This document shows positions 1 through 13,230 of a DNA stretch of 13,230 nucleotides, piece by piece. Under the pieces are notes generated by a model. The model was not told the origin of the DNA and made no database searches. It saw nothing but the letters and a program-made list of their open reading frames with translations. Source of the DNA: a virus (lineage: Duplodnaviria; Heunggongvirae; Uroviricota; Caudoviricetes); the IMG/VR virus record IMGVR_UViG_2695420589_000016; one strand, 5' to 3'. Every line of letters starts with the position of its first letter. Within the stretch, counting starts at the first letter, position 1. Made by a program: the position numbers and the translations under genes.

Positions 1-261
1 TTAATTCTGAGGTAAAGGCAAGCTCATCTGATTGTTTCCCCTGTGTGAAGCTGGCAGATCATGCCACGGGATATCTTCTGAAGAGTGAACGCCGGAGGCG
101 TGTTTTGATGTGAATTTATGGAAAGCTTCCAGTGTTGAGAAGCATACGCCGCATTCCAGATTGTTACACTGGTAATACTTTTGCCGCACGGTGTTTGAAT
201 CATTTTCCGGACGACTGGTGCGGATACGGGCAGATGCGCCACAAAGCGGACAACGGAACAT
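1..261 (-). CDS. ogr: Ogr/Delta-family zinc-finger late-gene transcriptional activator
   Basis: 86-aa ORF, ATG at 261-259, TAA at 3-1. SD GGGAGG (minus strand of 267-272) lies 5 nt upstream. N-terminus MFRCPLCG...YYQCNNLECG gives C4-x2-C7-x24-C32-x4-C37, the four-cysteine zinc finger of P2 Ogr / 186 Delta. Lies downstream of gpD on the same strand, as ogr does in P2. Confidence 0.85.
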   Translation of the reverse strand: MFRCPLCGASARIRTSRPENDSNTVRQKYYQCNNLECGVCFSTLEAFHKFTSKHASGVHSSEDIPWHDLPASHRGNNQMSLPLPQN

Positions 262-291
262 AGCGACCTCCCTTAACGTAGTGCAGGGGCT

Positions 292-320
292 ATTCTAAGT
301 TGTTCTGGCTCATACTCCAA
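292..320 (-). promoter_or_regulatory. Candidate sigma70 promoter for ogr (-35 TTGGAG, 17-nt spacer, -10 TAGAAT on the minus strand)
   Basis: Minus-strand hexamers read from plus 315-320 (ctccaa) and 292-297 (attcta). The -10 matches TATAAT at 5/6, the -35 is weak (3/6). Position is about 30 nt upstream of the ogr start. Motif match only. Confidence 0.2.
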
Positions 321-369
321 CAGCCAGTCCGTTTCGAGCGAAAAGCGGTGATTTAACTCTTGAAGAAAT

Positions 370-397
370 AGGCTTTGATACGATTTATCCAAAGCCT
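370..397 (-). terminator. Possible intrinsic terminator downstream of gene X (8-bp stem AGGCTTTG/CAAAGCCT, 12-nt loop)
   Basis: Perfect inverted repeat 370-377 / 390-397. On the minus strand it is followed by a moderately U-rich stretch (AUUUCUUCA). It lies between the gene X stop (505) and the ogr start (261). Weak, because the stem is AT-rich. Confidence 0.25.
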
Positions 398-504
398 GTA
401 AAAGATTGGAATGTTTTTTATCCTGTCATCTATTTTGGGAAAAGATCAGGAAATAGTTATGCACTTATAGATTTACTATAGCATTGTATTATTTGAGTAC
501 ACCC

Positions 505-2007
505 TCATGTTTTGATTTGTGCGCTAATAGAACTTTTCTGTCTTTTCTTCTGCTCTTGAATGTATGTCTGCACCATTTCTGTTATGGTTGAAAATGCACT
601 ATGTTCTTCTATAGTTATTTTTAATTTAAATGTTTTAATGACCGGATTGGTAAGGTTATTTGCATCAACTCTCACCTCAATTGCACCATTCACTTTCTTT
701 GGTTTGTTGGCTGTATATACGAACAACGGGAATATTTCTTCTTTGACTTGATGACGCCACTCTTCGCATTCCAGCGATACAACTTGAACTGGCTCATTTC
801 TCTTTTCTTTATAATAAAAATCGTTTTTATCCCTTTCTGTTGGAGTAAGAGATAACAAAGGACCAATTTCTTTTGAAATTATACTGGATAGCGGTGTTTC
901 CAAAGCTCCCCCAGCGTAAGGCATTCTTTCTGTTACGCCACATACACTACGCCATTTTCCTTTGGGGGCGGTAGGGGCTGAAGGTAGGTCAATCCTTTTG
1001 CTTTCAGTCAGCTCTTCCATTATCTCCCAATTAAATCCACACAGACGAAAATCTCCTTTTGCTGTAAATGTTACCACAGCACGTTCAGCGATAGTATAAC
1101 CTGTGTTTTGTAATAAAAACGACAGCGGGTAATTTATTGCCTTCGGATTAATATGAGTATGACAGTTTTTCAGTATTTCTTCACACTGCTTTTTCCAAAG
1201 TGGATAATGTTTTTCTTTATAAAGAGAAATATCATCTGCTGATACAGGGAAATACTCCTGTTGACTAAATGACTTGATGATTTTTTCTAGTGATTGTGGG
1301 GTAGTTTGTTCATTGTCAAAGTTTGTAACCAATGGGAATGCATCCGTTAGTTGACAAAGCAAATTATCAACTTCATATTCAGATAAAGCTGTATAATAAG
1401 GAAGTACAATATTTAATTGCTCGTCATCGGCTACTTTAATGCTGAAATCGGGCATAGACTGAGTGAATTGCTTCAGCTTAGCTTCCAGCAATTTAATTTG
1501 TTTATCCTTTTCATCTGGCTCAGCAGGAAGCAACCATGAAGAAGGCACTTTATAGCAGATTATATTATGTTTTATTGCTGAAAAACGTGGACCGCTATCA
1601 TTGGTAATGATTGCCACCTCCGAATCTGGATCGTCAGCGCAATACCCTGCCGCAATACCAACAAAACGATCGTCGGCCTCCTGATAATCCAATTGTTCAG
1701 ATAACTGTTCACATGGTTTCAGGCTTAGATCCATGGTAAGAAAAACTCGCGGCGAGCGTTCACGAATAACAAGAGTCATGTCAGTTGAATCAACTACTTG
1801 ATTAAATAGGCTAGCAGCCTTCCTTGCTTTTTTGGATAGGCGGGAATTACCTTGCCCTTTCTGGCGGTCAATCTCTTGCTGAATGGGCCTTGTAATAATG
1901 ATACATACTTCATCACAAGCAGTAATCTCGGAAAAATTTACCTGCGTCAAGTCCTTGCATTGTAGAAAAATGTTTGAGTCTGGGAATAAATACAGCTTTT
2001 TGTTCAT
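505..2007 (-). CDS. Hypothetical 500-aa protein with PIN-like N-terminal nuclease domain and uncharacterised C-terminal region; candidate prophage-encoded defence/abortive-infection protein
   Basis: Long uninterrupted ORF, ATG at 2007-2005, TGA at 507-505. SD GAGG lies 5 nt upstream (minus-strand TTGAGGTTTGAATG). Residues 1-155 show a PIN-like pattern of conserved acidic residues: D10 in LYLFPDSNIFLQ, E/D in IQQEIDRQ, an acidic cluster in YCADDPDSEV, and T-x-D in VAIITNDSG. A K/E-rich predicted helical stretch sits around residues 165-180. The C-terminal ~320 aa contain nothing I can assign. Confidence 0.8.
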   Translation of the reverse strand: MNKKLYLFPDSNIFLQCKDLTQVNFSEITACDEVCIIITRPIQQEIDRQKGQGNSRLSKKARKAASLFNQVVDSTDMTLVIRERSPRVFLTMDLSLKPCEQLSEQLDYQEADDRFVGIAAGYCADDPDSEVAIITNDSGPRFSAIKHNIICYKVPSSWLLPAEPDEKDKQIKLLEAKLKQFTQSMPDFSIKVADDEQLNIVLPYYTALSEYEVDNLLCQLTDAFPLVTNFDNEQTTPQSLEKIIKSFSQQEYFPVSADDISLYKEKHYPLWKKQCEEILKNCHTHINPKAINYPLSFLLQNTGYTIAERAVVTFTAKGDFRLCGFNWEIMEELTESKRIDLPSAPTAPKGKWRSVCGVTERMPYAGGALETPLSSIISKEIGPLLSLTPTERDKNDFYYKEKRNEPVQVVSLECEEWRHQVKEEIFPLFVYTANKPKKVNGAIEVRVDANNLTNPVIKTFKLKITIEEHSAFSTITEMVQTYIQEQKKRQKSSISAQIKT

Positions 2008-2042
2008 TCAAACCTCAACTATGTCAATGGTGTTAGATTAAT

Positions 2043-2070
2043 ATAATAATAGTTATCAATTGGTTATCAA
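2043..2070 (-). promoter_or_regulatory. Candidate sigma70 promoter for gene X (-35 TTGATA, 16-nt spacer, -10 TATTAT) overlapping a TTGATAA-N4-TTGATAA direct repeat
   Basis: Minus-strand hexamers read from plus 2065-2070 and 2043-2048, both 5/6 to consensus, placing a transcription start about 30 nt upstream of the ATG at 2007. The heptamer TTATCAA occurs twice on the plus strand (2053-2059 and 2064-2070), separated by TTGG. Confidence 0.3.
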
Positions 2071-2232
2071 AGCATGATTCTTACCACCCCTGATGTCAGG
2101 TAGGAAAACACCATATGTTTCTGCTCTGTTTTTCCTTAGAAATAGGCATCCTTGCTGGAACAAAGCGAGCAGCTATATTGACTCTATGTTGTGAGTGTGT
2201 TGATCCGTTCTGAGTTAATACATTTAAGTTGC

Positions 2233-3342
2233 TCACTCTGTTTCTGCTATCCATTCCGGGATTTTTGCCTCAAGCTCAAGCTGCGTGGTAAAGCCGCTGT
2301 TATCAATGGTGTGCTCGGCTTTTGCAATAATCCAGTCCTGATTATCAATCTCGCTTTTAAATCCTGTTACCGTGCCATGCATTTCGGGGTAGAGTTCTGC
2401 ACGTCCATGCGCCAGTGTGATGGAGAATGATGCGGCTCCGCGTTGTAGCTGCTGCCACTTTGCCGCCGCTGCACGTCTTGCTGCCTGCTCGTTCTGATAA
2501 GTTTTGCGTAACACAAACACGTTGCCTTCCGCACCTTCCATATAGTCGCCTTCCCGGCTGCTGCTTTTCTCCTTTTTTGGTTTTGACGGTTTGCGGCGTT
2601 TCACGCTGACTTTTTTCTTTTTCCCGTAATTAAGATCAAGCCAGTAAGCGCGTACCCCCGTATACGCTTCGCGGTCAGCAATGCGGAACTGATGGCGATC
2701 GCCGCTGCTGCGTGTGATGGCGAACGAGGGCAACGGCTGGCCCTGTGCGTTCACGCCACCACCGGGCATGATGAATAACAGATTACCGCTTTTTACCGTG
2801 GTGATTGCGCCCAGCATTTCCGCCATGCGCGTAAGGAAGGACATGTCGCTTTCTTCGGTCTGGTCGGCGTGGTCGATTTCGATATCCATCAGCATTTCGC
2901 TGATTTGCGGTTTCAGACCATACCGATGAGCGATGGCGGATACCACACGCTCAACGGTCACATCATGCCAGGACACCTCACGTTTAACGTTAAATTCAGC
3001 CCGAAAATCTGCGCTTCTGGCTGAAACAGTCAGCCTGTCCGGCGGTCCTTCGTGAGCGATTTCATCAACAATGTAAGTGCCTTTTTCTGTCAGCGGTTCT
3101 CCCTTCCAGCCAATGAGAACCGTCAGGCGCGCGCCCCGTGGCGGTAGCTGCAACTGACCATCCGCATCATCCAGCGTGATGGTGAGCTGGTCCGCCTCAA
3201 ATCCCCGGTTGTCGGTCAGTGACAGGCTCATCAGGCGCTCTGCCACGCCTGACAGCGTTTTACCCTCCGCGAGAATATCAAAATCCGGCATTTTCACGGG
3301 GTCTGTGCCCTGACTGAGCAATTGCATGGTGGTGTCGGTCAT
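2233..3342 (-). CDS. D: Phage late control gene D protein (gpD, tail/baseplate hub)
   Basis: The ORF is open from 3474, but I place the start at the ATG at 3342-3340 (MTDTTMQLL...) because it has a strong SD GGGAGGG 6-7 nt upstream, whereas the ATG at 3474 has none and would sit 25 nt from the divergent FI start. Size (369 aa) and position next to ogr fit gpD. Family assignment is from recollection of gpD-like proteins, not a search. Confidence 0.7.
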   Translation of the reverse strand: MTDTTMQLLSQGTDPVKMPDFDILAEGKTLSGVAERLMSLSLTDNRGFEADQLTITLDDADGQLQLPPRGARLTVLIGWKGEPLTEKGTYIVDEIAHEGPPDRLTVSARSADFRAEFNVKREVSWHDVTVERVVSAIAHRYGLKPQISEMLMDIEIDHADQTEESDMSFLTRMAEMLGAITTVKSGNLLFIMPGGGVNAQGQPLPSFAITRSSGDRHQFRIADREAYTGVRAYWLDLNYGKKKKVSVKRRKPSKPKKEKSSSREGDYMEGAEGNVFVLRKTYQNEQAARRAAAAKWQQLQRGAASFSITLAHGRAELYPEMHGTVTGFKSEIDNQDWIIAKAEHTIDNSGFTTQLELEAKIPEWIAETE

Positions 3343-3499
3343 CTGCTCCCTCCCTGTGTGGCATGGTCGCATGTGCGTGCGGAGGGGGTTACTGCTTTTT
3401 GTTGTCGCCGTGGCGGGAGAATGGCGCAGGGGTGAGATTACGCGCGTGGTGGGTGATGATTGTTGCCGAATCATTTAACGGATACAAGGGGTTGAAGCT

Positions 3500-4684
3500 A
3501 TGAGTGAAACTCGTTTTCATGGTGCCCGTGTTACGGAAAATACCGACCTGGTAACAGCGATTAACGATGTTGATTCCAGCGTTATCGGTATCGTGGCAAC
3601 GGCGGATGATGCGGACGCGGAGCTGTTCCCGCTGAACAAGCCCACACTGCTGCCCCGCGTCAATGACGTGCTGGGAAAATGCGGAACAACGGGGACGCTT
3701 TATCGTGCGCTTAAGGCCATCGCAGACCAGGTGAGCACAAAGGTGATCGTCGTTCGCGTGGCTGAACACAAAGAAGAAGACGGAAAAACGCAGGATCAAC
3801 TGGTTATCGGTGGTTCTGAATCTGACGGCAGCTATACGGGGATGTATGCGCTGCTTGTTGCAGAGCAGGATGAAAGCATCGGATACCGTCCGCGTATTCT
3901 GGCCGCGCCGGAGCTGGACACGGAGGCGGTGACAAAATCCCTGTGCGTGATTGCGGGTAAACTGCGCGCGTTTGTGTATGCCTCATGTCATGACTGTAAC
4001 ACGATGGCTGAGGCAATTACCTACCGCCAGAAATTCAACGAACGTGAGGTGATGCTCTTATGGCCGGACTTCATCGCCTACAACCCGAAAAGTGGCAAAA
4101 ACGAAACGTTCCCCGCGCCTGCCTATGCGTGCGGCCTTCGTGCGTACATTGACCATGAGCAGGGCTGGCACAAATCGCTGTCCAACGTTCCGGTTAAAAA
4201 TGTGCTGGGGATGTCCAGGCATGTGTTCTGGTCGTTGCAGGCCGAAGACAGTGATGCCAACAGCCTCAACAACAAAGAAATCACGACCATTATTCGTCGC
4301 AACGGGTTCCGCTTCTGGGGCAACCGCACACCGGAAACGAACGCCTACATCTTTGAGGTGTATACCCGAACCGCACAGGTGCTGGCTGATTCAATTGCGG
4401 AAGCGCAGTTTGAAACCATCGACAGTCCACTGACGCCTGCGAACGTGAAGGATGTTATCGGTGCCATCAGGGCAAAACTGGATTCACTGGTTACTGCCGG
4501 GAAACTGATTGGGGCGTCGTGCTGGTATGACGTGGTGGATAACGGCACCACGAATTTACGTCAGGGGCGCGTGCGTATTCGCTACAAATATACGCCTGTT
4601 CCCCCGCTGGAAGACATGGAGCTTTACCAGTCGTTTACTGATGAATTCTTTGGTCCCGCATTTGCGGTGCTGGGAGGTGCCTGA
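3500..4684 (+). CDS. FI: Contractile tail sheath protein (gpFI)
   Basis: 394-aa ORF, ATG at 3500, AAGGGG upstream. Size and sequence character match myovirus tail sheath (P2 FI is about 396 aa). Its stop overlaps the FII start (ATGA at 4682-4686). Confidence 0.9.
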   Translation: MSETRFHGARVTENTDLVTAINDVDSSVIGIVATADDADAELFPLNKPTLLPRVNDVLGKCGTTGTLYRALKAIADQVSTKVIVVRVAEHKEEDGKTQDQLVIGGSESDGSYTGMYALLVAEQDESIGYRPRILAAPELDTEAVTKSLCVIAGKLRAFVYASCHDCNTMAEAITYRQKFNEREVMLLWPDFIAYNPKSGKNETFPAPAYACGLRAYIDHEQGWHKSLSNVPVKNVLGMSRHVFWSLQAEDSDANSLNNKEITTIIRRNGFRFWGNRTPETNAYIFEVYTRTAQVLADSIAEAQFETIDSPLTPANVKDVIGAIRAKLDSLVTAGKLIGASCWYDVVDNGTTNLRQGRVRIRYKYTPVPPLEDMELYQSFTDEFFGPAFAVLGGA

Positions 4685-5196
4685 TGGCTGTACCAAAACA
4701 TCTTCGCTTTTTTACGCTGTTTGTGGATGGTGAAAACGAAGTGGGTAAGGTGACGTCCGTCACTCTGCCTAAGCTGACGCGCAAAACCGACAGCTACCGG
4801 GGTGGTGGCATGATGGGAGCGGTAAGTATTGATCTCGGCCTGGATGACTCCGCGCTTGATGCGAGCTTTGTCATGGGGGGCGCAGTTCGTGAGCTGTTCC
4901 TTAAGTATGGCGGCACGATTGACGGTACGCTGCTGCGTTTTGCGGGTGAATACTACACCGACGCTGAAAGCGACCTGTATGAAGTCGAAATGCGCGGACG
5001 TGTGACGGAAATTGATATGGGGGAAGCCAAACAGGGCGAAGCCACATCACACACTTACGCCATTAAAAACACCTACTACAAGCTGAGTGTTAACGATCGC
5101 CCGTTGTGGGAGATTGACCTGCTGAACTTCATTTACCGGAAGGACGGCAGGGACATTGTGCCCGATCGCATCCGTTCCGCGCTCGGGCTTGGCTGA
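4684..5196 (+). CDS. FII: Tail tube protein (gpFII)
   Basis: 170-aa ORF translationally coupled to FI. Size and position match the P2 tail tube protein (about 172 aa). Confidence 0.9.
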   Translation: MAVPKHLRFFTLFVDGENEVGKVTSVTLPKLTRKTDSYRGGGMMGAVSIDLGLDDSALDASFVMGGAVRELFLKYGGTIDGTLLRFAGEYYTDAESDLYEVEMRGRVTEIDMGEAKQGEATSHTYAIKNTYYKLSVNDRPLWEIDLLNFIYRKDGRDIVPDRIRSALGLG

Positions 5197-5250
5197 TAAG
5201 TAATATGCAGGCGGCGCAGTGCGTCGCCTCTGACTGAAAGGAGTTTCCTG

Positions 5251-5616
5251 ATGAAAGAGACGAAAAACATCGATACCGAAAACACGGTCGTTGCTGACAC
5301 TGTGAAAGAAACCAGTGAGCGTGGCGTAAAACTTACCCAACCAATTGAGCGAGGCGGCGAAAAAATCACGTATGTGGAGATCACCGGGGCTATTGAGCAG
5401 GCTGGATCTCTGCGAGATTTGTCGCTGTCTGATGTGCTGAATTTGAAAGCGGAATCCATGTTTACGCTGCTGTCACGCGTGACATCACCGCGACTGGATG
5501 AAGTGACGATCAAAAAAATGGCATCCCGTGACTTTATTCAGTTATGTGTGGTTGCCGTAAATTTTTTGAGCGGTGCGGACTCTGGCGAGAAGAACGAACA
5601 GGCGACGGAAGCCTGA
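5251..5616 (+). CDS. E: Tail assembly chaperone gpE (zero-frame product)
   Basis: 121-aa ORF, ATG at 5251 preceded by AAGGAG. Sits between the tube and tape-measure genes, the conserved position of the tail chaperone, and contains the slippery heptamer near its 3' end. Confidence 0.8.
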   Translation: MKETKNIDTENTVVADTVKETSERGVKLTQPIERGGEKITYVEITGAIEQAGSLRDLSLSDVLNLKAESMFTLLSRVTSPRLDEVTIKKMASRDFIQLCVVAVNFLSGADSGEKNEQATEA

Positions 5617-5780
5617 TCACGGTTGTGTGCTTTGAGCACATAGAAGACTTTGTGGCGGATATTGCCGCCATTTTTAACTGGTCGCCCGCCGAAATCTTCA
5701 TGATGACGCCCGGCGAAGTGGTTAGCTGGCGTGAGCGGGCGGCACTTCGCAGCGGGAATGCAGACAATGAAGACTCTTGA
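5251..5780 (+). CDS. E': Tail assembly chaperone E+E' (-1 frameshift fusion product)
   Basis: The E frame up to the slippery site at 5562-5568 joined to the -1 frame ORF ending at 5780. This conserved two-frame chaperone arrangement precedes the tape-measure gene in P2 and most long-tailed phages. Confidence 0.65.
5562..5568 (+). other. Programmed -1 ribosomal frameshift slippery heptamer T_TTT_TTG (E to E')
   Basis: The heptamer is in the X_XXY_YYZ register relative to the E frame (codons AAT TTT TTG = N F L). The -1 frame is open from here to the TGA at 5778-5780. Confidence 0.7.
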
Positions 5781-8718
5781 TATCCGGGTCGCTTNNNNNN
5801 NNNNNNNNNNNNNNNNNNNNNNNNNNNNNNNNNNNNNNNNNNNNNNNNNNNNNNNNNNNNNNNNNNNNNNNNNNNNNNNNNNCCGCCTGATGGGGCAGTT
5901 TGGTGACTCCATCCAGCGAACGCAGGGGGCGATCAAAAATCTCGAGCGTCAGGCGCGTTCATTTGAGCGCGCCCGTGACGCTGTCAGTAAAGCGGATGCG
6001 GGCATCGTGAAAGCACGACGCCAGCTTAACGCCCTTAATCAGTTACAACGCACGGGTACAGTGCTCAGCGAAAAACAACAAAAGCTGATGCAGCAGTTAA
6101 GCACCCGGCTTGAACGCCTGAATGAATCGCGCACACGGGAAATTCAGAAAATGCGGGAACTTGGCGGAGAGCTGAAACGCCACGGCATTTCCCTGACAGG
6201 CAGCGATAACACCATCCAGCAGGCCATCAGACGCACCGGACAATACAACAACCAGCTTGAACGCGAACGGCGGGCGCTTGCGCGTGTAACGCAGGCGCGT
6301 GAGCGGTATTCACGCGCGCAGGAAACAGCGGGAAAACTGAAAACAGGTGGTGCGCTGGCAACAGGTGCGGCGGCAGCGGGCGGCTATGCTGCCGGGCGTT
6401 TTTTGCAGCCCGCTATCGGGTTCGGGAAAGAGATGTCCCGTGTTCAGGCACTGACGCGAATCGATAAAAACAGCCCGCAGTTTAAGGCGCTGCGTGAGCA
6501 GGCGTTAAAACTTGGCTCTGAAACGCAGTTCACCGCAGGCGATGCCGCCAGTGGACAGGCATTTCTTGCAATGGCTGGTTTCACACCGCAGGCCATTCAG
6601 GCTGCGCTTCCCGGCGTGCTGAGCATGGCAACGGCTGGCGGTATGGACCTCGGCGAGACGGCGGATATTGGTTCCAATATCCTGACGCAGTTCGGCCTCT
6701 CTGCTGACCAGATGGACCGGGTCGGTGACACACTTACCGCAGCGTTTACCCGTACCAACACTGACCTTCGCGCACTGGGCGAAACCATGAAATATGCAGG
6801 TCCGGTGGCGGGTAAGCTGGGAATATCGCTGGAGCAGGCCGCAGCGATGGCGGGCGTGCTGGCGAAGATGGGTATCAGGGGGAGTGATGCAGGTACAGCG
6901 TTGCGTAAAAGCCTGGCCAATCTGTCATCACCGCCAAAGGCAGCGGCAGAAGCACTGAAAGAGCTGGGGGTGTCAGTTGCTGACGCCAAAGGCAAAATGC
7001 GCCCGATGGAGAATGTGCTGGCCGATCTCTATAAAGCCACCCGCAAATACGGGGAGGTTGACCGGGTATCGTTCTTTAAGGACATTGCCGGAGAAGAGGC
7101 TTTCACATCATTTATGGGCCTCGTTGATGCGGCAGGTGACGGCNNNNNNNNNNNNNNNNNNNNNNNNNNNNNNNNNNNNNNNNNNNNNNNNNNNNNNNNN
7201 NNNNNNNNNNNNNNNNNNNNNNNNNNNNNNNNNNNNNNNNNNNNNNNNNNNNNNNNNNNNNNNNNNNNNNNNNNNNNNNNNNNNNNNNNNNNNNNNNNNN
7301 NNNNNNNNNNNNNNNNNNNNNNNNNNNNNNNNNNNNNNNNNNNNNNNNNNNNNNNNNNNNNNNNNNNNNNNNNNNNNNNNNNNNNNNNNNNNNNNNNNNN
7401 NNNNNNNNNNNNNNNNNNNNNNNNNNNNNNNNNNNNNNNNNNNNNNNNNNNNNNNNNNNNNNNNNNNNNNNNNNNNNNNNNNNNNNNNNNNNNNNNNNNN
7501 NNNNNNNNNNNNNNNNNNNNNNNNNNGGGAAGCTGGCTACGTTGCGTCTCGGTTTTTCTCTCCTGACCGAATCAATGAATGTTGTCAGGGTTCTGCCTGC
7601 ATTATGGGGAATNNNNNNNNNNNNNNNNNNNNNNNNNNNNNNNAATGGTGACGGGTTCCGTTTCTTTACTTGGTGGCGCTATCGGGGCGCTGTTCAGTCC
7701 GGTTAGTCTTATCGTGGCTGCGCTTGCCGGAGCTGCCGTTCTTATCTGGAAATACTGGGATCCCATCAGGGCATTTTTTGCCGGGGTGTTCAGCGGGATT
7801 ATGGAAAGGCTGACCCCGTTGCGCGAAACCTTTGAACGGTTTGGCCCTGTTTTTGATGTCGTGCGCGATGGGATTATTCAGGTCTTTAACTGGTTTAAAT
7901 CGCTGCTGTCACCGATGGAGTCCAGCAAGGAAACGCTGGATAAATGTGCCAGTGCTGGCGAGATATTCGGTAACGTTCTTGGCGGTGCGTTACAACTTGT
8001 TCTGACACCTGCAAAAATGCTACTGGATACGCTGGCGTGGATACTTGAAAAACTTGGCGTCCTTCCGGATGAAGCGGAAAGGGCGCGCAAGAAAATCGAA
8101 GACGCACAGCGTGCGGCCATTCTTCAGGACAAGGTTGCCTTGCTTCAGGGGAACCTGGCGAAAATCAATCCGCCGAAGCCTGTGGAAAATGGCAATGGCA
8201 CCGGAGGTGATAAACCCAAAGACAACAAACCGCTCACAGACAGCAATACCGGGACGCTACGCAGACTCAGCAAAATTGCTGATAACACAGGTAAGCTGGT
8301 TGATGAGACGAAAAAACGCATTGGCCCCGGCGATATTGTCTTTAAGAACCTGCCCCGCGCACTTGCTGTTCGTGGGGAGTGGCAGGAGCGGAAGATTGCG
8401 CAGGTCAGTAAGCCTGCCCCCGCAATTAATATCACACCCGTGGTCCCGGCTCCGCTGCCTCCGGCGCTGGTCCCTGTTGTTGCGGCCAGCTCCCGCCCGG
8501 TGGCGGAGGCCATACGCTCTCCAGTGGCATCAGTTCCTGTAACTTCCCGTAACCGGGAGCCTGTTGCCTCCGGATTTGGTGGTGAAATTCATGTTCATCT
8601 GCATAACGTTGTTACGCAGAATCCCCGCGAACTGGCGAAACTGGTCGGTGAAATGGTCAGGGCAGAAATGGAACGGCGCGCCCGTGCCGGGCGTGGCAGT
8701 TTTTACGATAAAGATTGA
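5767..8718 (+). CDS. T: Tail tape measure protein (gpT), interrupted by three N-runs; length and continuity uncertain
   Basis: ATG at 5767 (MKTLDIRVA) overlaps the E' stop. The N-terminal part is coiled-coil-like; the central part has the Gly/Ala-rich tape-measure core (GGALATGAAAAGGYAAG..., AGGMDLGETADIGSNILTQFGLS..., GIRGSDAGTALRKSL...). The C-terminal part runs 7645-8718 (MVTGSVSLLGGAIGALFSP...) with TGA at 8716-8718. N-runs at 5795-5882, 7144-7526 and 7613-7643 fall inside the gene. Confidence 0.75.
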
Positions 8719-8730
8719 GGAGTCATGGCC

Positions 8731-9219
8731 ATGATGATGATCTACGGCATGTTTGTTTTTGAGCTGCGTACATTGCCGCATCAGCAGTTACAGCAAAACA
8801 AAAGCTGGCGGCATGTGAAAAATGAACGCGTTAACCGTTCGGCAAGCTGGCAGTATATCGGTGCAGGTGATGAGCGCATCGTTCTTTCTGGTGTGCTTTA
8901 TCCTGAAATTACAGGTGGCGAAGTGTCGCTGTCGCTGCTGACCACGCAGGCGTATACAGGACGACCCTGGCCTCTGATTGATGGCGTCGGGCAGATTTAC
9001 GGCATGTATGTCCTGACCGAAACGAATACGACCCGCTCCGAGTTTGATCGCTACGGTAAGGCGAAAAAGATAGAATTTTCACTGACTCTTGAACGCTGTG
9101 ATGAGGATTTGCGGGAGCGCCTGCAATCCTCATCGTTCAGCGATATGCTGTCCGGCTTCAAAGATAAGGTAACATCATCCCTTAACAGCGCGGCCAGTTC
9201 AGTTAAAGGGTTGTTCTGA
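8731..9219 (+). CDS. U: Tail protein gpU
   Basis: The ORF is open from the ATG at 8725, but SD GAGGAG (8717-8722) is only 2 nt from it, so I prefer the ATG at 8731 or 8734 (MMMIYGMFVFELRTLPHQQ...). About 160 aa, directly after T, as for P2 gpU (about 159 aa). Confidence 0.8.
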   Translation: MMMIYGMFVFELRTLPHQQLQQNKSWRHVKNERVNRSASWQYIGAGDERIVLSGVLYPEITGGEVSLSLLTTQAYTGRPWPLIDGVGQIYGMYVLTETNTTRSEFDRYGKAKKIEFSLTLERCDEDLRERLQSSSFSDMLSGFKDKVTSSLNSAASSVKGLF

Positions 9220-9230
9220 TTTAACACAAA

Positions 9231-9267
9231 AACCGCTAATGGTCAGATTAGCGGTTATTTTGTTTCC
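9231..9267. terminator. Bidirectional rho-independent terminator between gpU and the invertase gene
   Basis: Perfect 10-bp inverted repeat AACCGCTAAT (9231-9240) / ATTAGCGGTT (9247-9256) with a 6-nt loop, flanked by an A-run upstream (9224-9230) and a T-rich run downstream (9257-9267). It lies between convergent genes. Confidence 0.55.
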
Positions 9268-10096
9268 TGACTCTTCTCTATTGTTCCGATTGATTCTCCT
9301 GCGGGGTGGTAACGATAAATCGTCGATATACCAATGCCGTAAATTATTGCCAGTTGTTTTCTGTCGTGCCCGTTTTTGATCAGCCTTGCTATTTGCTCAT
9401 GCTGTTCTTTTGTCAGCTTCGGTCGACGTCCGCCTGTGCGCCCCCGTGCGCGTGCTGCCGCCAGTCCGGCCAGTGTACGTTCAACAATTAATTCACGTTC
9501 CATTTCAGCCAGGGCACCCATCACGTGGAAGAAAAAACGCCCCATTGGAGAAGATGTATCTATGCTGTCGGTCAGACTGCGAAAATTAATTCCTCGCTCC
9601 CGTAGTTCCCCGACGAGAGAAATCAGATGTTTCATGCTTCGCCCGAGGCGATCCAGTTTCCNNNNNNNNNNNNNNNNNNNNNNNNNNNNNNNNNNNNNNN
9701 NNNNNNNNNNNNNNNNNNNNNNNNNNNNNNNNNNNNNNNNNNNNNNNNNNNNNNNNNNNNNNNNNNNNNNNNNNNNNNNNNNNNNNNNNNNNNNNNNNNN
9801 NNNNNNNNNNNNNNNNNNNNNNNNNNNNNNNNNNNNNNNNNNNNNNNNNNNNNNNNNNNNNNNNNNNNNNNNNNNNNNNNNNNNNNNNNNNNNNNNNNNN
9901 NNNNNNNNNNNNNNNNNNNNNNNNNNNNNNNNNNNNNNNNNNNNNNNNNNNNNNNNNNNNNNNNNNNNNNNNNCCTGTCCTTGTTCCGCTTAATTTATCT
10001 TCAAATATTTGTTCATATCCTGCACAAACAAGAGCGTTTCGTTGCAGGTCTGTATTCTGGTCATTTGTTGANNNNNNNNNNNNNNNNNNNNNNNNN
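9255..10096 (-). CDS. Serine DNA invertase, Gin/Cin/Pin/Hin family (internal region masked by N-run; start inside N-run, approximate)
   Basis: C-terminal part 9255-9661 reads (W)[62 protein letters not shown]...GRRPKLT... and the N-terminal fragment 9974-10069 reads [32 protein letters not shown]. Both closely resemble phage Mu Gin and e14 Pin as I recall them, including the catalytic-serine region VSTNDQ. The start codon is predicted about 8 codons upstream of the visible fragment, inside N-run 10072-10194. Confidence 0.85.
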
Positions 10097-10194
10097 NNNN
10101 NNNNNNNNNNNNNNNNNNNNNNNNNNNNNNNNNNNNNNNNNNNNNNNNNNNNNNNNNNNNNNNNNNNNNNNNNNNNNNNNNNNNNNNNNNNNNN

Positions 10195-10211
10195 ACCTCG
10201 GTTTACGAGAA
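10195..10211. other. Partial invertase crossover site (gix/hix-like), left half lost in N-run
   Basis: ACC-TC-GGTTTACGAGAA at the first unmasked bases after the N-run. It matches the recalled gix core ...AAACC-TC-GGTTTACAGGAA at 10 of 12 positions in the right half-site, and sits next to the invertase 5' end, as gixR does next to gin in Mu. Confidence 0.45.
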
Positions 10212-10970
10212 CTCGGCACAAGCGGGGAGAAAATACCGTTACTCAGTACAGCGAATACCTGGACTAATCGACAAACATTCAGCGGTGGCCTTTCTGGTGA
10301 ACTATCCGGCAATGCTTCTACAGCTGCAAAATTAAAAACTGCCAGGAAAATAAGCAATGTGGCTTTTGATGGTTCCTCCGATATCACATTAAAAGCAAGT
10401 CATGTTGGTGCGTTTGCCTTAGGGAAAACAGGAAGCACCGTTGCGAATGATAAAGCAGTTGGATGGAACTGGAGTAGCGGAGCCTATAACGCAACTATTA
10501 GTGGTGCATCAACGTTAATTATTCATTTTTATATGGGAGAAGGAAGTTGTCCTGCAGCTCAGTTTCGGATTAATTATAAAAATGGCGGTATTTTTTATCG
10601 TTCAGCCCGTGATGGTTATGGTTTTGAAGCCGACTGGTCCGAATTTTACACCACCAGAAAACCTTCAGCAGGAGATGTTGGTGCACTGCCGTTATCTGGT
10701 GGTCAACTGAATGGTGCACTGGGTATCGGAACATCCAGTGCTCTTGGCGGTAATTCGATTGTATTGGGTGATAATGACACGGGCTTTAAACAAAAAGGCG
10801 ATGGTAATCTGGATGTTTATGCTAATAACGTCCATGTTATGCGCTTTGTCTCCGGAAGCATTCAAAGTAATAAAACCATAAATATTACGGGACGTGTTAA
10901 TCCCTCGGATTACGGTAACTTTGATTCCCGCTATGTGAGAGATGTCAGACTTGGCACACGAGTTGTTTAG
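10197..10970 (+). CDS. Alternative tail-fibre C-terminal variable segment (Sv'-like), no own start codon, ended by an in-frame TAG
   Basis: The frame is open from the crossover site and encodes ...TANTWTNRQTFSGGLSGELSGNAS...[23 protein letters not shown]. The GNFDSRYV(R/K)DVRLG motif is shared with the intact fibre segment on the minus strand (12214-13230). Expression would require inversion to fuse it to the constant part of the fibre gene. Confidence 0.6.
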   Translation, partial: LGLRELGTSGEKIPLLSTANTWTNRQTFSGGLSGELSGNASTAAKLKTARKISNVAFDGSSDITLKASHVGAFALGKTGSTVANDKAVGWNWSSGAYNATISGASTLIIHFYMGEGSCPAAQFRINYKNGGIFYRSARDGYGFEADWSEFYTTRKPSAGDVGALPLSGGQLNGALGIGTSSALGGNSIVLGDNDTGFKQKGDGNLDVYANNVHVMRFVSGSIQSNKTINITGRVNPSDYGNFDSRYVRDVRLGTRVV

Positions 10971-11120
10971 ACCATGAAGAAAGGCGTGATGTATGAAAAA
11001 TCAGGCCATGTAATCACGGGGCTTGGTATTATCGGTGAAGTCGATGGTGATGATCCGGCAGTATTCAGACCAATACAAAAGTTAATTAACGGAACATGGT
11101 ATAACGTATCGCAGGTATAA
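10971..11120 (+). pseudogene. In-frame continuation of the Sv' fibre segment after the TAG, encoding the conserved fibre C-terminus (49 codons)
   Basis: Same frame as 10197-10970. Encodes [49 protein letters not shown], colinear with the C-terminus of the minus-strand copy (...[43 protein letters not shown]). Its TAA at 11118-11120 is 2 nt before the tfa' start, mirroring the coupling of the other copy. Confidence 0.55.
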
Positions 11121-11122
11121 TC

Positions 11123-11656
11123 ATGCAGCATTTAAAAAACATTGTCGCAGGTAATCCAAAAACCGTTGAACAATACCAGCTAACAAAGAATTTTGATGTT
11201 ATCTGGTTATGGTCCGAAGATGGAAAAAATTGGCATGAGGAATTAAAAAACTTTCAGGAGGATACAATAAAACTGGCTTACACAGTTGAGGGAATAATTA
11301 TTGCTATAGACAAGGATGTATCAGCAATTAATCCAGAAGGTTTAAGTGTCGTTGAGTTGCCTGATATTACAGCAAATCGCCGGGCTGATATTTCGGGCAA
11401 CTGGATGTTCAAAGATGGTGCGGTGATAAAGCGAACTTATACCGAGGAAGAGCAAAGGCAACAAGCGGAAAATGAAAAGCAGAGCCTGCTGCAGCTCGTC
11501 AGGGATAAAACCCAGCTGTGGGACTCTCAGCTACAGCTGGGCATCATTTCCGATGAGAATAAACAAAAATTAACCGAGTGGATGCTCTATGCGCAGAAGG
11601 TTGAATCCACAGACACCTCCAGCCTGCCAGTAACGTTTCCCGAACAACCAGAATGA
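11123..11656 (+). CDS. tfa: Tail fibre assembly protein (Tfa, chaperone for the Sv' fibre segment)
   Basis: 177-aa ORF, ATG at 11123. N-terminus [20 protein letters not shown]... and ...[34 protein letters not shown]... are typical of the Mu U / P2 G / E. coli TfaE family and paralogous to the minus-strand tfa. Confidence 0.85.
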
Positions 11657-11661
11657 AACAA

Positions 11662-11689
11662 GGCCCGATATCGGGCCTTAATTTTTACT
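11662..11689. terminator. Bidirectional terminator between the convergent tfa genes (perfect 16-nt palindrome GGCCCGATATCGGGCC plus T-run)
   Basis: The palindrome at 11662-11677 is followed by TTAATTTTTA on the plus strand and by a U-rich stretch on the minus strand. It sits between the tfa' stop (11654-11656) and the tfa stop (11685-11687). Confidence 0.55.
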
Positions 11690-12212
11690 CAGGCTTTTGT
11701 GGCCATTCTGGCTTTGCCGTATCCACACGGCTGACCAGAACACTGTAGCGTTCCCATGCTTCCAGTCGTGTGCGTTCCTCGTCTGTTGCCATATTCAGCC
11801 TGACAGCGCGTTCCAGCGGCTGGATGACTGATTCAGCTTCGGAAAGCAATGCGGCCTTTTGTGATTCGGCCTGTTGTTGCTGTTCGTCAGCCGTATAAAT
11901 CCGTTTAACCACAGCTCCGTCCTTAAACATCCACTTACCGGAATCATCAGCACGACGATTAGCTGTAATATCAGGAACCTCAACGACGCTATAACCTTCA
12001 GGGTTAAGCGTGGAGGCATCTTTGGTGATGGCGACAATAATATTATTTGCATCGTAAACAATCTTTATTGTGTCTGGCTGAAAGTTCTTCACTTCCTCAT
12101 ACCAGTTTTTTCCGTCCTCAGAGTAAAGCCAGATGACTCCGTGCTTCTTTGTTAACTCATACTGCTCCACTGTTTTAGCATTACCTGCTTTTATGTTCTT
12201 TAAGTGCATCAT
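11685..12212 (-). CDS. tfa: Tail fibre assembly protein (Tfa, chaperone for the currently expressed fibre segment)
   Basis: The ORF is open from 12245, but the homologous start [20 protein letters not shown]... is the ATG at 12212-12210, 1 nt after the fibre stop codon (12216-12214). The sequence parallels the plus-strand Tfa throughout (...[33 protein letters not shown]...). Confidence 0.85.
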
Positions 12213-12213
12213 A

Positions 12214-13230
12214 TTAAATACTCGCCACATTATACCAAGTGCCATTTATATACTTTTGCACTGGCCTGTAATGAACGCCTGCAATATTATCGGCAGAGTT
12301 TTTTCCGGTATCCTGTACGTTAATCCCCGTCAGTACATAGCCTGACGGGCACTGAAAATTCCATGTTTGCCAGTTGTTCACTCCATAATATTGCTGTGAA
12401 CCAAGTCGAACATCTTTCACATATCTGGAATCAAAATTGCCATAGTTGCCGGGAATAACTTGCGAGCCGCAAAGCCAGTTCCCGTTATTATCCATGTACG
12501 CCTGACCATCGGTGCCATTGGCTGTCCTTGAGTTATTAATCATGTAGATGCCAAATTGCTTATTTCCCAGACCGCCAATCATAAATTTGCGGTCGGCATG
12601 GTCCTGACGGAGCAAAGCCTGAGCACCATCAGTGGATACCGCATTACGTCCCAAAATAACATTCTGGTCACGCATATGAATCCACATGCCGGTACTACTG
12701 TTAATTGCAAAACGGTTTGCAAATATATCCCCTGTAACATCAAGACCATGCCCCATGCTTATCCGGCCAGTTCTGAGATTAAGCGTAAAGGGGCGTAGTG
12801 GCCCTATATTACCATTTTCCCCTTCATTCTCTCGTGTAGGGATGATATGCAGGCATTCTTCAGAACGACGAAAAATGGCACCAAAAGATGAATTAAATAT
12901 CCTCAGTGCATTGACTGTCGATATTTTCACTTCACTGCTGAAAAGGGCTTCAACAAGAACAGACAAAGCATTCCATTTAAGATTCATCAGGTCTTTAGGC
13001 CGGGTGCCAATGATGCGGTGTCTCCATTTGAAATATTCATTGCCGTTGTTGCCTGTTTCAAACCACATGTAGGAATCGGTGTCTGCATCCGAATTATTTT
13101 TAAACCCAATCTTTGCCCAGTCAGTATTTCGAATCCAGGCAAGGATTGAGTCGTTTTCAAAAGTAAGTCCACCGGACAACGTATCGCCATTTTTTTGCAC
13201 GGCGTTACCAGCCTTGTTTACCGTTTCCTG
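12214..13230 (-). CDS. Tail fibre protein, C-terminal receptor-binding portion (gene continues past the window end)
   Basis: The frame is open from the window end ([26 protein letters not shown]...) to TAA at 12216-12214. It carries the [14 protein letters not shown] motif and the C-terminus ...[19 protein letters not shown]. The ORF tool's M at 13200 is a GTG inside the open frame, not the true start. Confidence 0.8.

Follow-up and report, generated by a model that had tools for sequence, protein, structure and literature searches.

As host-range switches, invertible tail-fibre segments of the phage Mu G/gin family have been textbook matter since the 1980s, and the Fis enhancer that goes with them sits inside the 5' end of gin or hin. 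Tominaga, Ikemizu & Enomoto are said to have published the B segment-pinB system of Shigella, together with its exact crossover sites, in 1991. PMC3241671 cites that report (GenBank D00660; Tominaga, Ikemizu & Enomoto 1991, J Bacteriol 173:4079) and gives the bixL and bixR site sequences in its Table 3. The e14 P-pin, P1 C-cin and p15B Min systems resemble the locus described here in their Din-family invertases, the same 26-bp site design and the switching of tail-fibre tips, but differ from it in a core of AA instead of GA and in other half-sites and cassettes.

The stretch of DNA that we analysed (the window: 13,230 nt, IMG/VR record IMGVR_UViG_2695420589_000016) is a gapped scaffold whose N-runs are scaffold gaps. 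With high confidence we read the region as a Din-family (Gin/Hin/Cin/Pin/PinB) inversion module that belongs to the B segment-pinB type of Shigella/E. coli and forms part of a P88-like prophage's tail module, and the segment is very probably an orthologue of the Mu G segment-gin. Judged by its sequence, the carrier is a P88-like (Xuanwuvirus, P2 family, Peduoviridae) prophage of Shigella/E. coli; S. boydii CP026836 has the same prophage, and similar sequence is present in 1953 of 5426 complete E. coli genomes (about a third). The system is already known, a host-range switch in which fibre tips are swapped by a Gin/PinB invertase; an earlier interpretation made without database searches (hereafter the sequence-only reading) had rightly called it a Gin-type invertible tail-fibre switch beside its invertase. 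The features are as follows.

9255-10071, minus strand: Gin/PinB-type serine DNA invertase gene, partly masked by N-runs
9974-10071, no strand assigned: putative Fis-dependent recombinational enhancer stretch in the invertase 5' coding region
10186-10211, plus strand: invertase-proximal 26-bp crossover site, [TTATCTAAA]ACC TC GGTTTACGAGAA, visible from 10195
10197-11120, plus strand: Sv'A silent variable fibre-tip cassette (from ORF and translation; Pfam gp37_C)
10968-10970, plus strand: nonsense codon TAG in the Sv'A frame, where the intact copy has CAG (from alignments)
11123-11656, plus strand: tfaA, tail-fibre assembly chaperone for Sv'A, 177 aa (Pfam Caudo_TAP, E 4.8e-34)
11660-11679, no strand assigned: bidirectional terminator hairpin between the convergent chaperone genes, a perfect palindrome AAGGCCCGATATCGGGCCTT
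11685-12212, minus strand: tfaB, chaperone for SvB, 175 aa, homologous to Mu U (Pfam Caudo_TAP, E 2.5e-37)
12214-13224, minus strand: SvB variable fibre tip, homologue of Mu Sv, frame open to the window end
13225-13230, plus strand: start (TTCCTG, 6 nt) of the fibre-proximal 26-bp crossover site, the remaining 20 nt lying past the window

The mirror arrangement proposed before, fibre and tfa on the minus strand facing tfa' and Sv' on the plus strand, is borne out by the ORFs and by three pairs of inverted arms: 11294-11479/11856-12041 (186 nt, 71%), 11123-11281/12054-12212 (159 nt, 72%) and 11066-11107/12227-12268. Each tfa gene starts, as had been noticed, 1-2 nt after its fibre stop, with a 2-nt spacer on the plus strand (TAA 11118-11120, tfaA ATG 11123) and a 1-nt spacer on the minus strand (TAA 12214-12216, tfaB ATG 12210-12212), and terminator-like matches on both strands lie between them at 11660-11679. 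As in Mu G and Shigella B, both fibre frames open at the crossover sites: Sv'A is without a start codon, and the minus-strand frame was correctly described as still open at the window end, namely to 13230. The SGGL motif that the sequence-only reading put at 13168-13176 is present, although these coordinates are only close, the LSGGL codons occupying 13166-13180. In the orientation of the scaffold SvB would be joined to a P2-H-like constant fibre part past the window, given that two relatives (L011, L001) carry the same SvB sequence fused in frame to a P2-H-like N-terminus.

Of the invertase gene, the window shows the C-terminal 135 codons (9255-9661) and codons from about 9 to 41 (9974-10071), while the middle and the start codon fall inside N-runs of untrue length. 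The former piece is 100% identical to two prophages (L018, L020) in which the gene has 588 nt and encodes 195 aa, and the latter is 97-100% identical to relatives' copies of the 195-aa gene; the Gin-like invertase placed next to the fibre cassettes by the sequence-only reading is therefore there, both visible pieces belonging to it. The relatives' full protein is a small serine recombinase with an N-terminal resolvase domain (Pfam Resolvase, 1.3e-50) and a C-terminal helix-turn-helix (HTH_7, 1.6e-13), and it is nearly identical to Gin (PDB 4m6f/3uj3, E about 1e-101; a single difference in the first 103 residues). The codon of the catalytic Ser lies at 10069-10071 in the window, where minus-strand codons 10071-10057 read S-T-N-D-Q of the YVRVSTxDQ motif and the preceding codons are masked. 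Between 9974-10071 and nt 25-121 of Mu gin, 96 of 97 nt are identical, and the counterpart of this stretch in Mu gin is what we take to be the Fis-dependent enhancer region.

As for the crossover sites, 17 of 26 nt of the first and 6 of 26 nt of the second are visible in the window. The first 9 nt of the invertase-proximal site are masked by N, its central dinucleotide TC is at 10198-10199, and ACCTCGGTTTACGAGAA at 10195-10211 (17 nt) is an exact match to a Mu/bix-type core and inner half-site. A gix-like core had been seen at 10195-10206, where the Sv' frame opens, and the frame does open there, at 10197 on the edge of the N-run. Scanning for the site with three mismatches allowed gave two matches against 0.04 expected, a number reached in none of 200 shuffles. 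The full site, TTATCTAAAACCTCGGTTTACGAGAA, is read in L002 and L004, where the sequence alongside agrees with the window at 99-100%, and its outer half is that of the published bixR. For the partner site, the search past the window end that the sequence-only reading had called for succeeds in relatives (L011, and likewise L001, L015, L018) whose sequence agrees in full with the final 187 nt of the window; they read ...GTTTCCTG and continue TAAACCGAGGTATTCGATAA. This continuation places the partner at window positions 13225-13250, its first 6 nt inside the window and hence closer than had been estimated. It is TTCCTGTAAACC GA GGTATTCGATAA (read in L011, L001 and L002) and equals the published bixL exactly. 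An exact-pattern scan with the last 88 nt of the window hit 7 IMG/VR contigs, none of them the window itself, and no genome contigs. Beyond 13230 the source would continue TAAACCGAGG followed by the outer half-site, and TTCCTGTAAACCGAGGTATTCGATAA is expected within 13225-13260. A nearby GTTTACC (13216-13222), left uncalled before, was rejected as a site core, as it is coding sequence 3-9 nt before the true site. The two cores are GA/TC and inverted with respect to each other (the first site read in L002/L004, the second in L011/L001), and across 19 loci the outer halves are constant, TTATCTAAAACC on the invertase side and TTATCGAATACC on the fibre side, which are those of bixR and bixL in GenBank D00660.

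Because the sites lie inside coding sequence (IEYLGLQE), their conservation could be driven by the protein, and one might see in the locus a static pair of convergent, duplicated fibre and chaperone genes in which the gix-like motif is mere conserved coding sequence and site-specific inversion does not occur. We consider this highly improbable, since near-identical prophages are polymorphic for orientation with breakpoints exactly at the sites, which contradicts it directly. In three pairs (L036/L034, L029/L033, L024/L001) flanks and segment are each 99.7-99.98% identical and the segment is inverted, the breakpoints falling within a 26-32-bp overlap at the sites. Both orientations thus occur in 99.9%-identical prophages, and they also do so among prophages with identical tfaB, whose exact protein is encoded in P88-like prophages L029-L038. 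Prophages 100% identical to window positions 1-9661 have SvB in the opposite orientation, and four (L015, L018, L020, L024) are 100% identical to the tail genes of the window yet have SvB next to the invertase, with a recombinant site, TTCCTGTAAACCGAGGTTTTAGATAA, at the invertase-proximal junction. Such recombinant combinations of half-sites, the adjacent invertase nearly identical to Gin and the inversion of the B segment, which PMC3241671 cites as published, argue against a static pair as well. L015, itself a scaffold with a single-N join at 3141, was dropped as direct proof of inversion; from it only the invertase-proximal junction was used, and proof was taken from complete genomes and ungapped contigs.

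Going by its homologues and the literature on the family, the 195-aa serine invertase would bind the two inverted 26-bp sites (10186-10211 and 13225 to about 13250) and, assisted by Fis on the enhancer within the 5' end of its own gene, would cut both at the central 2 bp, and strand rotation and religation would flip a segment of about 3.06 kb. The constant 5' part of the fibre gene (about 340 codons) and its late promoter would remain outside, so that each orientation would fuse a different C-terminal receptor-binding tip to the constant part, with the chaperone gene of that tip directly downstream. Inversion in the source strain itself is what we infer from these relatives and homologues.

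Compared with the described systems, the window shares with Mu G-gin the order Sc, site, Sv-U, U'-S'v, site, invertase, with sites that differ by 2 nt each from those of Mu. Nucleotide identity to Mu Sv/U is 80-88% for SvB/tfaB (about 81% for tfaB), and P88-like relatives (L001/L016) match the whole Mu segment at about 89% over 3 kb. Unlike in Mu, the constant fibre part and the virion module are P2-like, and the invertase lies between two convergent operons, that of the fibre and that of sheath, tube and tape measure. This is the gene order of Escherichia phage P88 and Citrobacter phage phiSM (ogr, D, FI, FII, E, T, U, invertase, Sv'-tfa / tfa-H, I, J, W, V); P88 (Xuanwuvirus) is colinear with the window at 95.0% nt identity over 70% of it and has its invertase annotated, but it is without the 500-aa PIN-domain gene present in the window at 505-2007, and its two cassettes are the canonical Mu-like pair, each with an inner half-site of CAGGAA. 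For the cargo protein with the PIN domain PADLOC returned no match, and the P88 host-range paper does not mention inversion. Min-type multi-cassette arrays were seen in three P88-like relatives (L019, L022, L023) and are absent from the window.

The likeness to Shigella B-pinB takes in the exact bixL, the bixR outer half in relatives, the Gin-like invertase, a segment of about 3.1 kb and the matching SvB/tfaB half. In the B segment (D00660), however, both cassettes are like Mu Sv-U/S'v-U' and both inner half-sites are TTCCTGTAAACC, a combination not found in the window: Sv'A and tfaA are not like Mu S'v/U' (Sv'A matches Mu S'v over 280 nt only, at 79%), Sv'A carries a TAG, and the inner half-site is GGTTTACGAGAA rather than GGTTTACAGGAA, that of Sv'A being TTCTCGTAAACC. 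As Sv'A and its half-site depart from the B segment in this way, the window holds a cassette variant, or a chimera, of it.

The TAG bears on what the switch could achieve. It lies 50 codons before the end of Sv'A, the last 49 residues including the conserved C-terminus are lost with it, and it is the cause of the listed ORF ending at 10970, a codon that the sequence-only reading overlooked. Its claim that the element can switch between two fibre specificities is unsupported as put, since the change from CAG to TAG removes the conserved end of Sv'A. The second specificity is therefore probably dead, and in this copy only the SvB orientation would give a full-length fibre. Sv'A is 100% identical to copies in lambdoid remnants (L003-L008), and in one further locus (L017) it forms an in-frame fusion with a lambdoid side tail fibre and is expressed.

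A pseudogene tip could also mean that the switch is decaying and effectively frozen, with the architecture of an invertible segment but no longer changing host range in this lineage, its genome being of the IS-ridden Shigella type with an IS perhaps hidden in the gap at 10072-10194. Besides the TAG at 10968-10970, this is suggested by prophages L018 and L020, identical over 1-9661, in which an IS3-family element sits in the invertase-proximal outer half-site (TTATCTAAAAC[IS]AACCTCGG), by a second IS in the other chaperone gene of L018, and by the gap-free piece of the window starting 1 nt from that IS junction position. Against it, L034 and L036 share both IS insertions but differ in segment orientation, so inversion went on after the IS had inserted; moreover, L015 and L024 agree with the tail genes at 100% and are free of the IS, and intact cassettes are not needed for inversion itself. 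To our minds a frozen switch is thus a tentative reading, which we would sooner doubt than adopt.

Whether the two cassettes belong together is a separate matter. The sequence-only reading took invertase, Sv' cassette and minus-strand fibre to be a single verified element, an assumption that is unsupported as put, the pieces of this gapped scaffold matching two different loci. Positions 1-9661 and 11808-13230 are 100% identical to P88-like prophages (L018/L020 and L015/L018, respectively), whereas 9974-10071 and 10195-11656 are 100% identical to a lambdoid locus (L003-L008) of the same Shigella genomes, and L004 (lambdoid remnant) and L018 (P88-like prophage) share one chromosome. SNPs follow the lambdoid alleles to 11602, the prophage at 11657-11712, the lambdoid ones again at 11784 and 11787 and the prophage from 11808, a fine mosaic (11603-11808) with three allele switches within 200 nt. 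Since the invertase 5' piece and the silent cassette match the lambdoid remnant in full and are followed by this mosaic, the pairing of cassettes may be an assembly chimera. In such a case the source would be a Shigella-type genome like CP032523.1 with two inversion loci, one in a P88-like prophage whose invertase is intact and one in a lambdoid remnant that holds Sv'A(TAG), tfaA and an invertase stub of 60 codons; the scaffolder or assembler would have left the prophage via shared repeats into the lambdoid cassette and come back, the real partner of SvB in the prophage would be a Mu-S'v-like cassette, and the orientation shown would be arbitrary.

To the window switch being partly such a chimera we give an even chance. 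The N-runs are not true to length (312 against a real 60 within the invertase, 383 against 318, 88 against 43 and 31 against about 0), contig 1 ends 9-10 nt into a repeat common to the two invertase copies, and the gap-free piece 10195-13230 runs from the 12-bp common core of one site to the first core base of the other, as is expected where an assembler meets alternative continuations at both sites. Among complete E. coli genomes none covers at least 80% of 9200-13230 and the tfaA/tfaB pair never exceeds 97%, nor was a genome found with this pairing. A 200-nt pattern over the mosaic junction (11596-11795) had no match in viral contigs or metagenome contigs. On the other side, no gap interrupts 10195-13230, paralogous fibre cassettes commonly undergo gene conversion, and natural mosaics of this sort exist, as in L002, a P88-like prophage in a chromosome-level E. 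coli assembly, whose inner half-site is CGAGAA and which has the first 490 nt of Sv'A at 99% identity. Site recombination between the two prophages, by way of a large chromosomal inversion, was rejected as the origin of the mosaic because its switch points lie in the invertase gene and at 11603-11808 and not at the sites.

Beyond correct annotation the importance of the locus is small, the carrier group (P88/Xuanwuvirus) having already been sequenced and its DNA invertase annotated. It does illustrate that short-read assemblies break up where they meet the crossover sites and paralogous cassettes of invertible loci, that orientation and cassette pairing in gapped scaffolds are not to be trusted, and that nonsense mutations need to be looked for in a silent cassette before one speaks of two specificities. 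A bolder option, possible in our view though we do not lean towards it, is a genuine recombinant: a P2-family prophage would have taken one half of the segment and the 5' end of the invertase gene from a lambdoid remnant on the same chromosome, importing a tip with an amber codon, with IS-bearing Shigella relatives still inverting despite an IS in the half-site. If true, unrelated prophages in one cell would be using Din-type switch modules as a common platform for exchange.

The window covers the tail module of a P88-type prophage (P2 family, genus Xuanwuvirus); phage P88 itself matches it at 95% identity over 70% in sequence comparison, shares its gene order and carries an annotated DNA invertase.

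Features of the window (coordinates, strand where given, feature)
1-261, minus, ogr
505-2007, minus, PIN-domain cargo gene, 500 aa, N-terminal PIN_4 domain
2233-3474, minus, gpD
3500-4684, sheath
4684-5196, tube
between tube and tape measure, E/E'
5731-8718, tape measure, interrupted by N-runs
8725-9219, gpU, followed by the region of the finding
9255-9661 and 9974-10071 (visible parts), minus, Gin-type invertase
10197 to terminal TAA at 11118-11120, plus, Sv'A fibre-tip frame without start codon
11123-11656, plus, chaperone gene tfaA (Caudo_TAP)
11660-11679, perfect hairpin between tfaA and tfaB
11685-12212, minus, chaperone gene tfaB, convergent to tfaA
TAA at 12214-12216, frame open to 13230, minus, SvB fibre tip

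P88 and one related locus (L019) have nothing in the slot between ogr and gpD, and another (L025) has a different gene there, of 381 aa; the slot therefore resembles a variable cargo hotspot, possibly with a role in defence; a PADLOC search with the 500-aa PIN-domain protein gave no match. gpU and the invertase gene converge on a hairpin at 9231-9256 (10-bp stem, T-runs on both sides) that is likely to be a bidirectional terminator.

The sequence-only reading, which called a Gin-type invertible tail-fibre switch, was correct about this well-known element. The Gin-like invertase it had placed beside the fibre region is 195 aa long in relatives 100% identical to the window over 1-9661, where it has Resolvase and HTH_7 domains and matches the Mu Gin crystal-structure sequence at E about 1e-101, with 1 difference in the first 103 residues; its active-site codons (Ser-Thr-Asn-Asp-Gln) are readable in the window at 10071-10057 on the minus strand. 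Window 9974-10071, identical at 96 of 97 positions to the matching part of the Mu gin 5' end, we take to be the counterpart of the part that holds the Fis enhancer. The gix-like motif proposed at 10195 held up as well: 10195-10211, where the second N-run in this region ends, reads ACC TC GGTTTACGAGAA and agrees at every position with the core and inner half-site of the Mu/bix type; a scan for the site pattern allowing 3 mismatches returned 2 matches, where chance alone would give 0.04. As had also been read, Sv'A opens at this motif as a start-less frame, the two tip-chaperone pairs mirror each other (tfaA starts 2 nt past the Sv'A TAA, the tfaB ATG lies 1 nt past the SvB stop) and SvB is still open at the window end. 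The partner site had been expected just past that end; relatives do have an inverted 26-bp partner there, but it already begins inside. Three aligned relatives, among them a locus (L011) 100% identical to the last 187 nt of the window, read ...CCGTTTCCTG / TAAACCGAGGTATTCGATAACGGC across the window end, which places the start of the partner, TTCCTGTAAACC GA GGTATTCGATAA, at 13225, its 6 nt there being the window's last 6. It codes for I-E-Y-L-G-L-Q-E, at about residues 335-342 of a fibre whose N-terminus is P2-H-like. The GA/TC cores of the two sites are inverted relative to each other, and the invertible segment, from the site at 10186-10211 to the partner, spans ~3,065 bp.

Prophages with identical tfaB occur in two segment states. 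In one (L030, L033, L034, L035, L038, L001) the constant part plus SvB forms a 678-aa fibre and the other tip lies silent beside the invertase; in the other (L029, L031, L032, L036, L037, L024) SvB is a silent 328-codon ORF beside the invertase and the fibre has 656 aa. When L036/L034, L029/L033 and L024/L001 are compared pairwise, flanks align with flanks and segment with segment at 99.7-99.98% identity, the segment is inverted, and the breakpoints fall within a 26-32-bp overlap at the sites. SvB lies opposite to its orientation in the window in L018 and L020 (100% identical over 1-9661) and in L015 and L024 (100% identical over 2082/2085-9661), the latter two with the predicted recombinant site TTCCTGTAAACCGAGGTTTTAGATAA. 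Judged from these alignments, natural inversion products occur among the relatives. In the Shigella relatives that are identical over 1-9661 (L018, at 11160-12450, and L020), an IS3-family element with a 3-bp duplication interrupts the invertase-proximal site in its outer half (TTATCTAAAAC-IS-AACCTCGG), and the gap at 10072-10194 could hide the same insertion; the Shigella-type loci L030, L034 and L036 have the element too. Since L034 and L036 share it, as well as another IS within the segment (in the chaperone gene), and differ in orientation, the damaged site apparently still recombined, working with ~8/12 outer half-site bases preserved.

Comparison with relatives shows the N-runs to be scaffold gaps, not length-true masks, and ORFs and distances across them, including the apparent split of the tape measure and an apparent 280-codon invertase, to be artefacts.

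N-runs of the window and corresponding lengths in relatives (L018, 100% identical; L004, a lambdoid remnant copy)
5795-5882, 88 N, 43 nt in L018
7144-7526, 383 N, 318 nt in L018
7613-7643, 31 N, about 0 nt in L018
9662-9973, 312 N, 60 nt in L018
10072-10194, 123 N, 87 nt in L004

For stretches 9974-10071 and 10195-11656, the 100% match is a lambdoid prophage remnant beside trp (L003-L008) rather than the prophage; this remnant carries an invertase stub of 60 codons and a site pair of its own, and in CP032523.1 it shares one chromosome with the P88-like prophage. Within 11603-11808 the window's alleles alternate between lambdoid and prophage three times, contig 1 ends 9-10 nt into a repeat common to both invertase copies, and the gap-free piece 10195-13230 runs from the 12-bp common core at one site to the first core base at the other. 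Together, this suggests that the assembler met paralogous cassettes, mixed orientations, or both, and we consider the odds about even that the cassette pairing and orientation displayed are an artefact; a natural mosaic is also plausible. A chromosome-level E. coli P88-like prophage (L002) shares the CGAGAA inner half-site and, at 99% identity, the first 490 nt of Sv'A. The locus breaks another assembly, L015 (IMGVR_UViG_2693429557_000008), in which a single N at 3141 leads from the middle of the fibre constant part into the middle of a chaperone gene and the contig starts exactly at a crossover site. An invertible fibre segment of this kind is also present in the lambdoid remnant (e.g. L004 8827-12005), which, owning only an invertase stub, would depend on invertase in trans, e.g. 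from the P88-like prophage of CP032523.1.

Where two switchable fibre specificities had been proposed, the window departs from expectation: Sv'A has an in-frame TAG at 10968-10970, at which an intact annotated fibre with the same cassette fused (L017) has CAG. Through it the tip loses its final 49 residues and, among them, the C-terminal ...RP(I/V)QK.INGTWYN... motif common to all these tips, so the second specificity is probably non-functional in a non-suppressing host. The same TAG is found in Sv'A of the lambdoid copies L003-L008.

In Gin/Hin inversion, invertase dimers at two sites and Fis at an enhancer assemble on supercoiled DNA. While anatomy, Gin near-identity, bix-site identity and natural inversion products come from the present data, the mechanistic steps we infer from what is established for Gin/Hin: dimers at both sites and Fis at the enhancer in the invertase gene 5' end would assemble on supercoiled DNA, and Ser-mediated cleavage of both strands at the central dinucleotide, followed by a 180-degree rotation and religation, would turn the segment round. 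Expression, downstream of the late operon, would then be confined to the tip joined to the constant fibre part and to the chaperone of that tip.

The system is already known, in a known phage group, and the blemishes specific to this copy are the nonsense codon and the doubtful scaffold. For GenBank D00660 (Shigella B segment; Tominaga et al. 1991), Table 3 of PMC3241671 gives PinB sites that are exactly both sites of P88 and of the prophages L001, L024, L029 and L033. One carrier, CP026836, is Shigella boydii. Six further P88-like loci with identical gpU (L019, L022, L023, L025-L027; ~11190-15900) lack the Mu-type segment; a 199-aa invertase stands there instead, and after it come 4-6 short 'Collar'-domain fibre-tip ORFs whose order and orientation vary by strain; the sites between these tips are identical or near-identical to p15B Min sites (e.g. 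TTCCCCCAAACC AA GGTAATCAAGAA), and the loci are a multiple-inversion, shufflon-like form of the switch. Whole segment plus invertase of the B-type prophages share ~89% nucleotide identity with Mu G-gin, and Mu Sv/U are 80-88% identical to SvB/tfaB of the window. Tominaga and colleagues reportedly found B-pinB highly homologous to G-gin, the constant fibre part excepted, as would fit a P2-type fibre that has received a Mu-type cassette.
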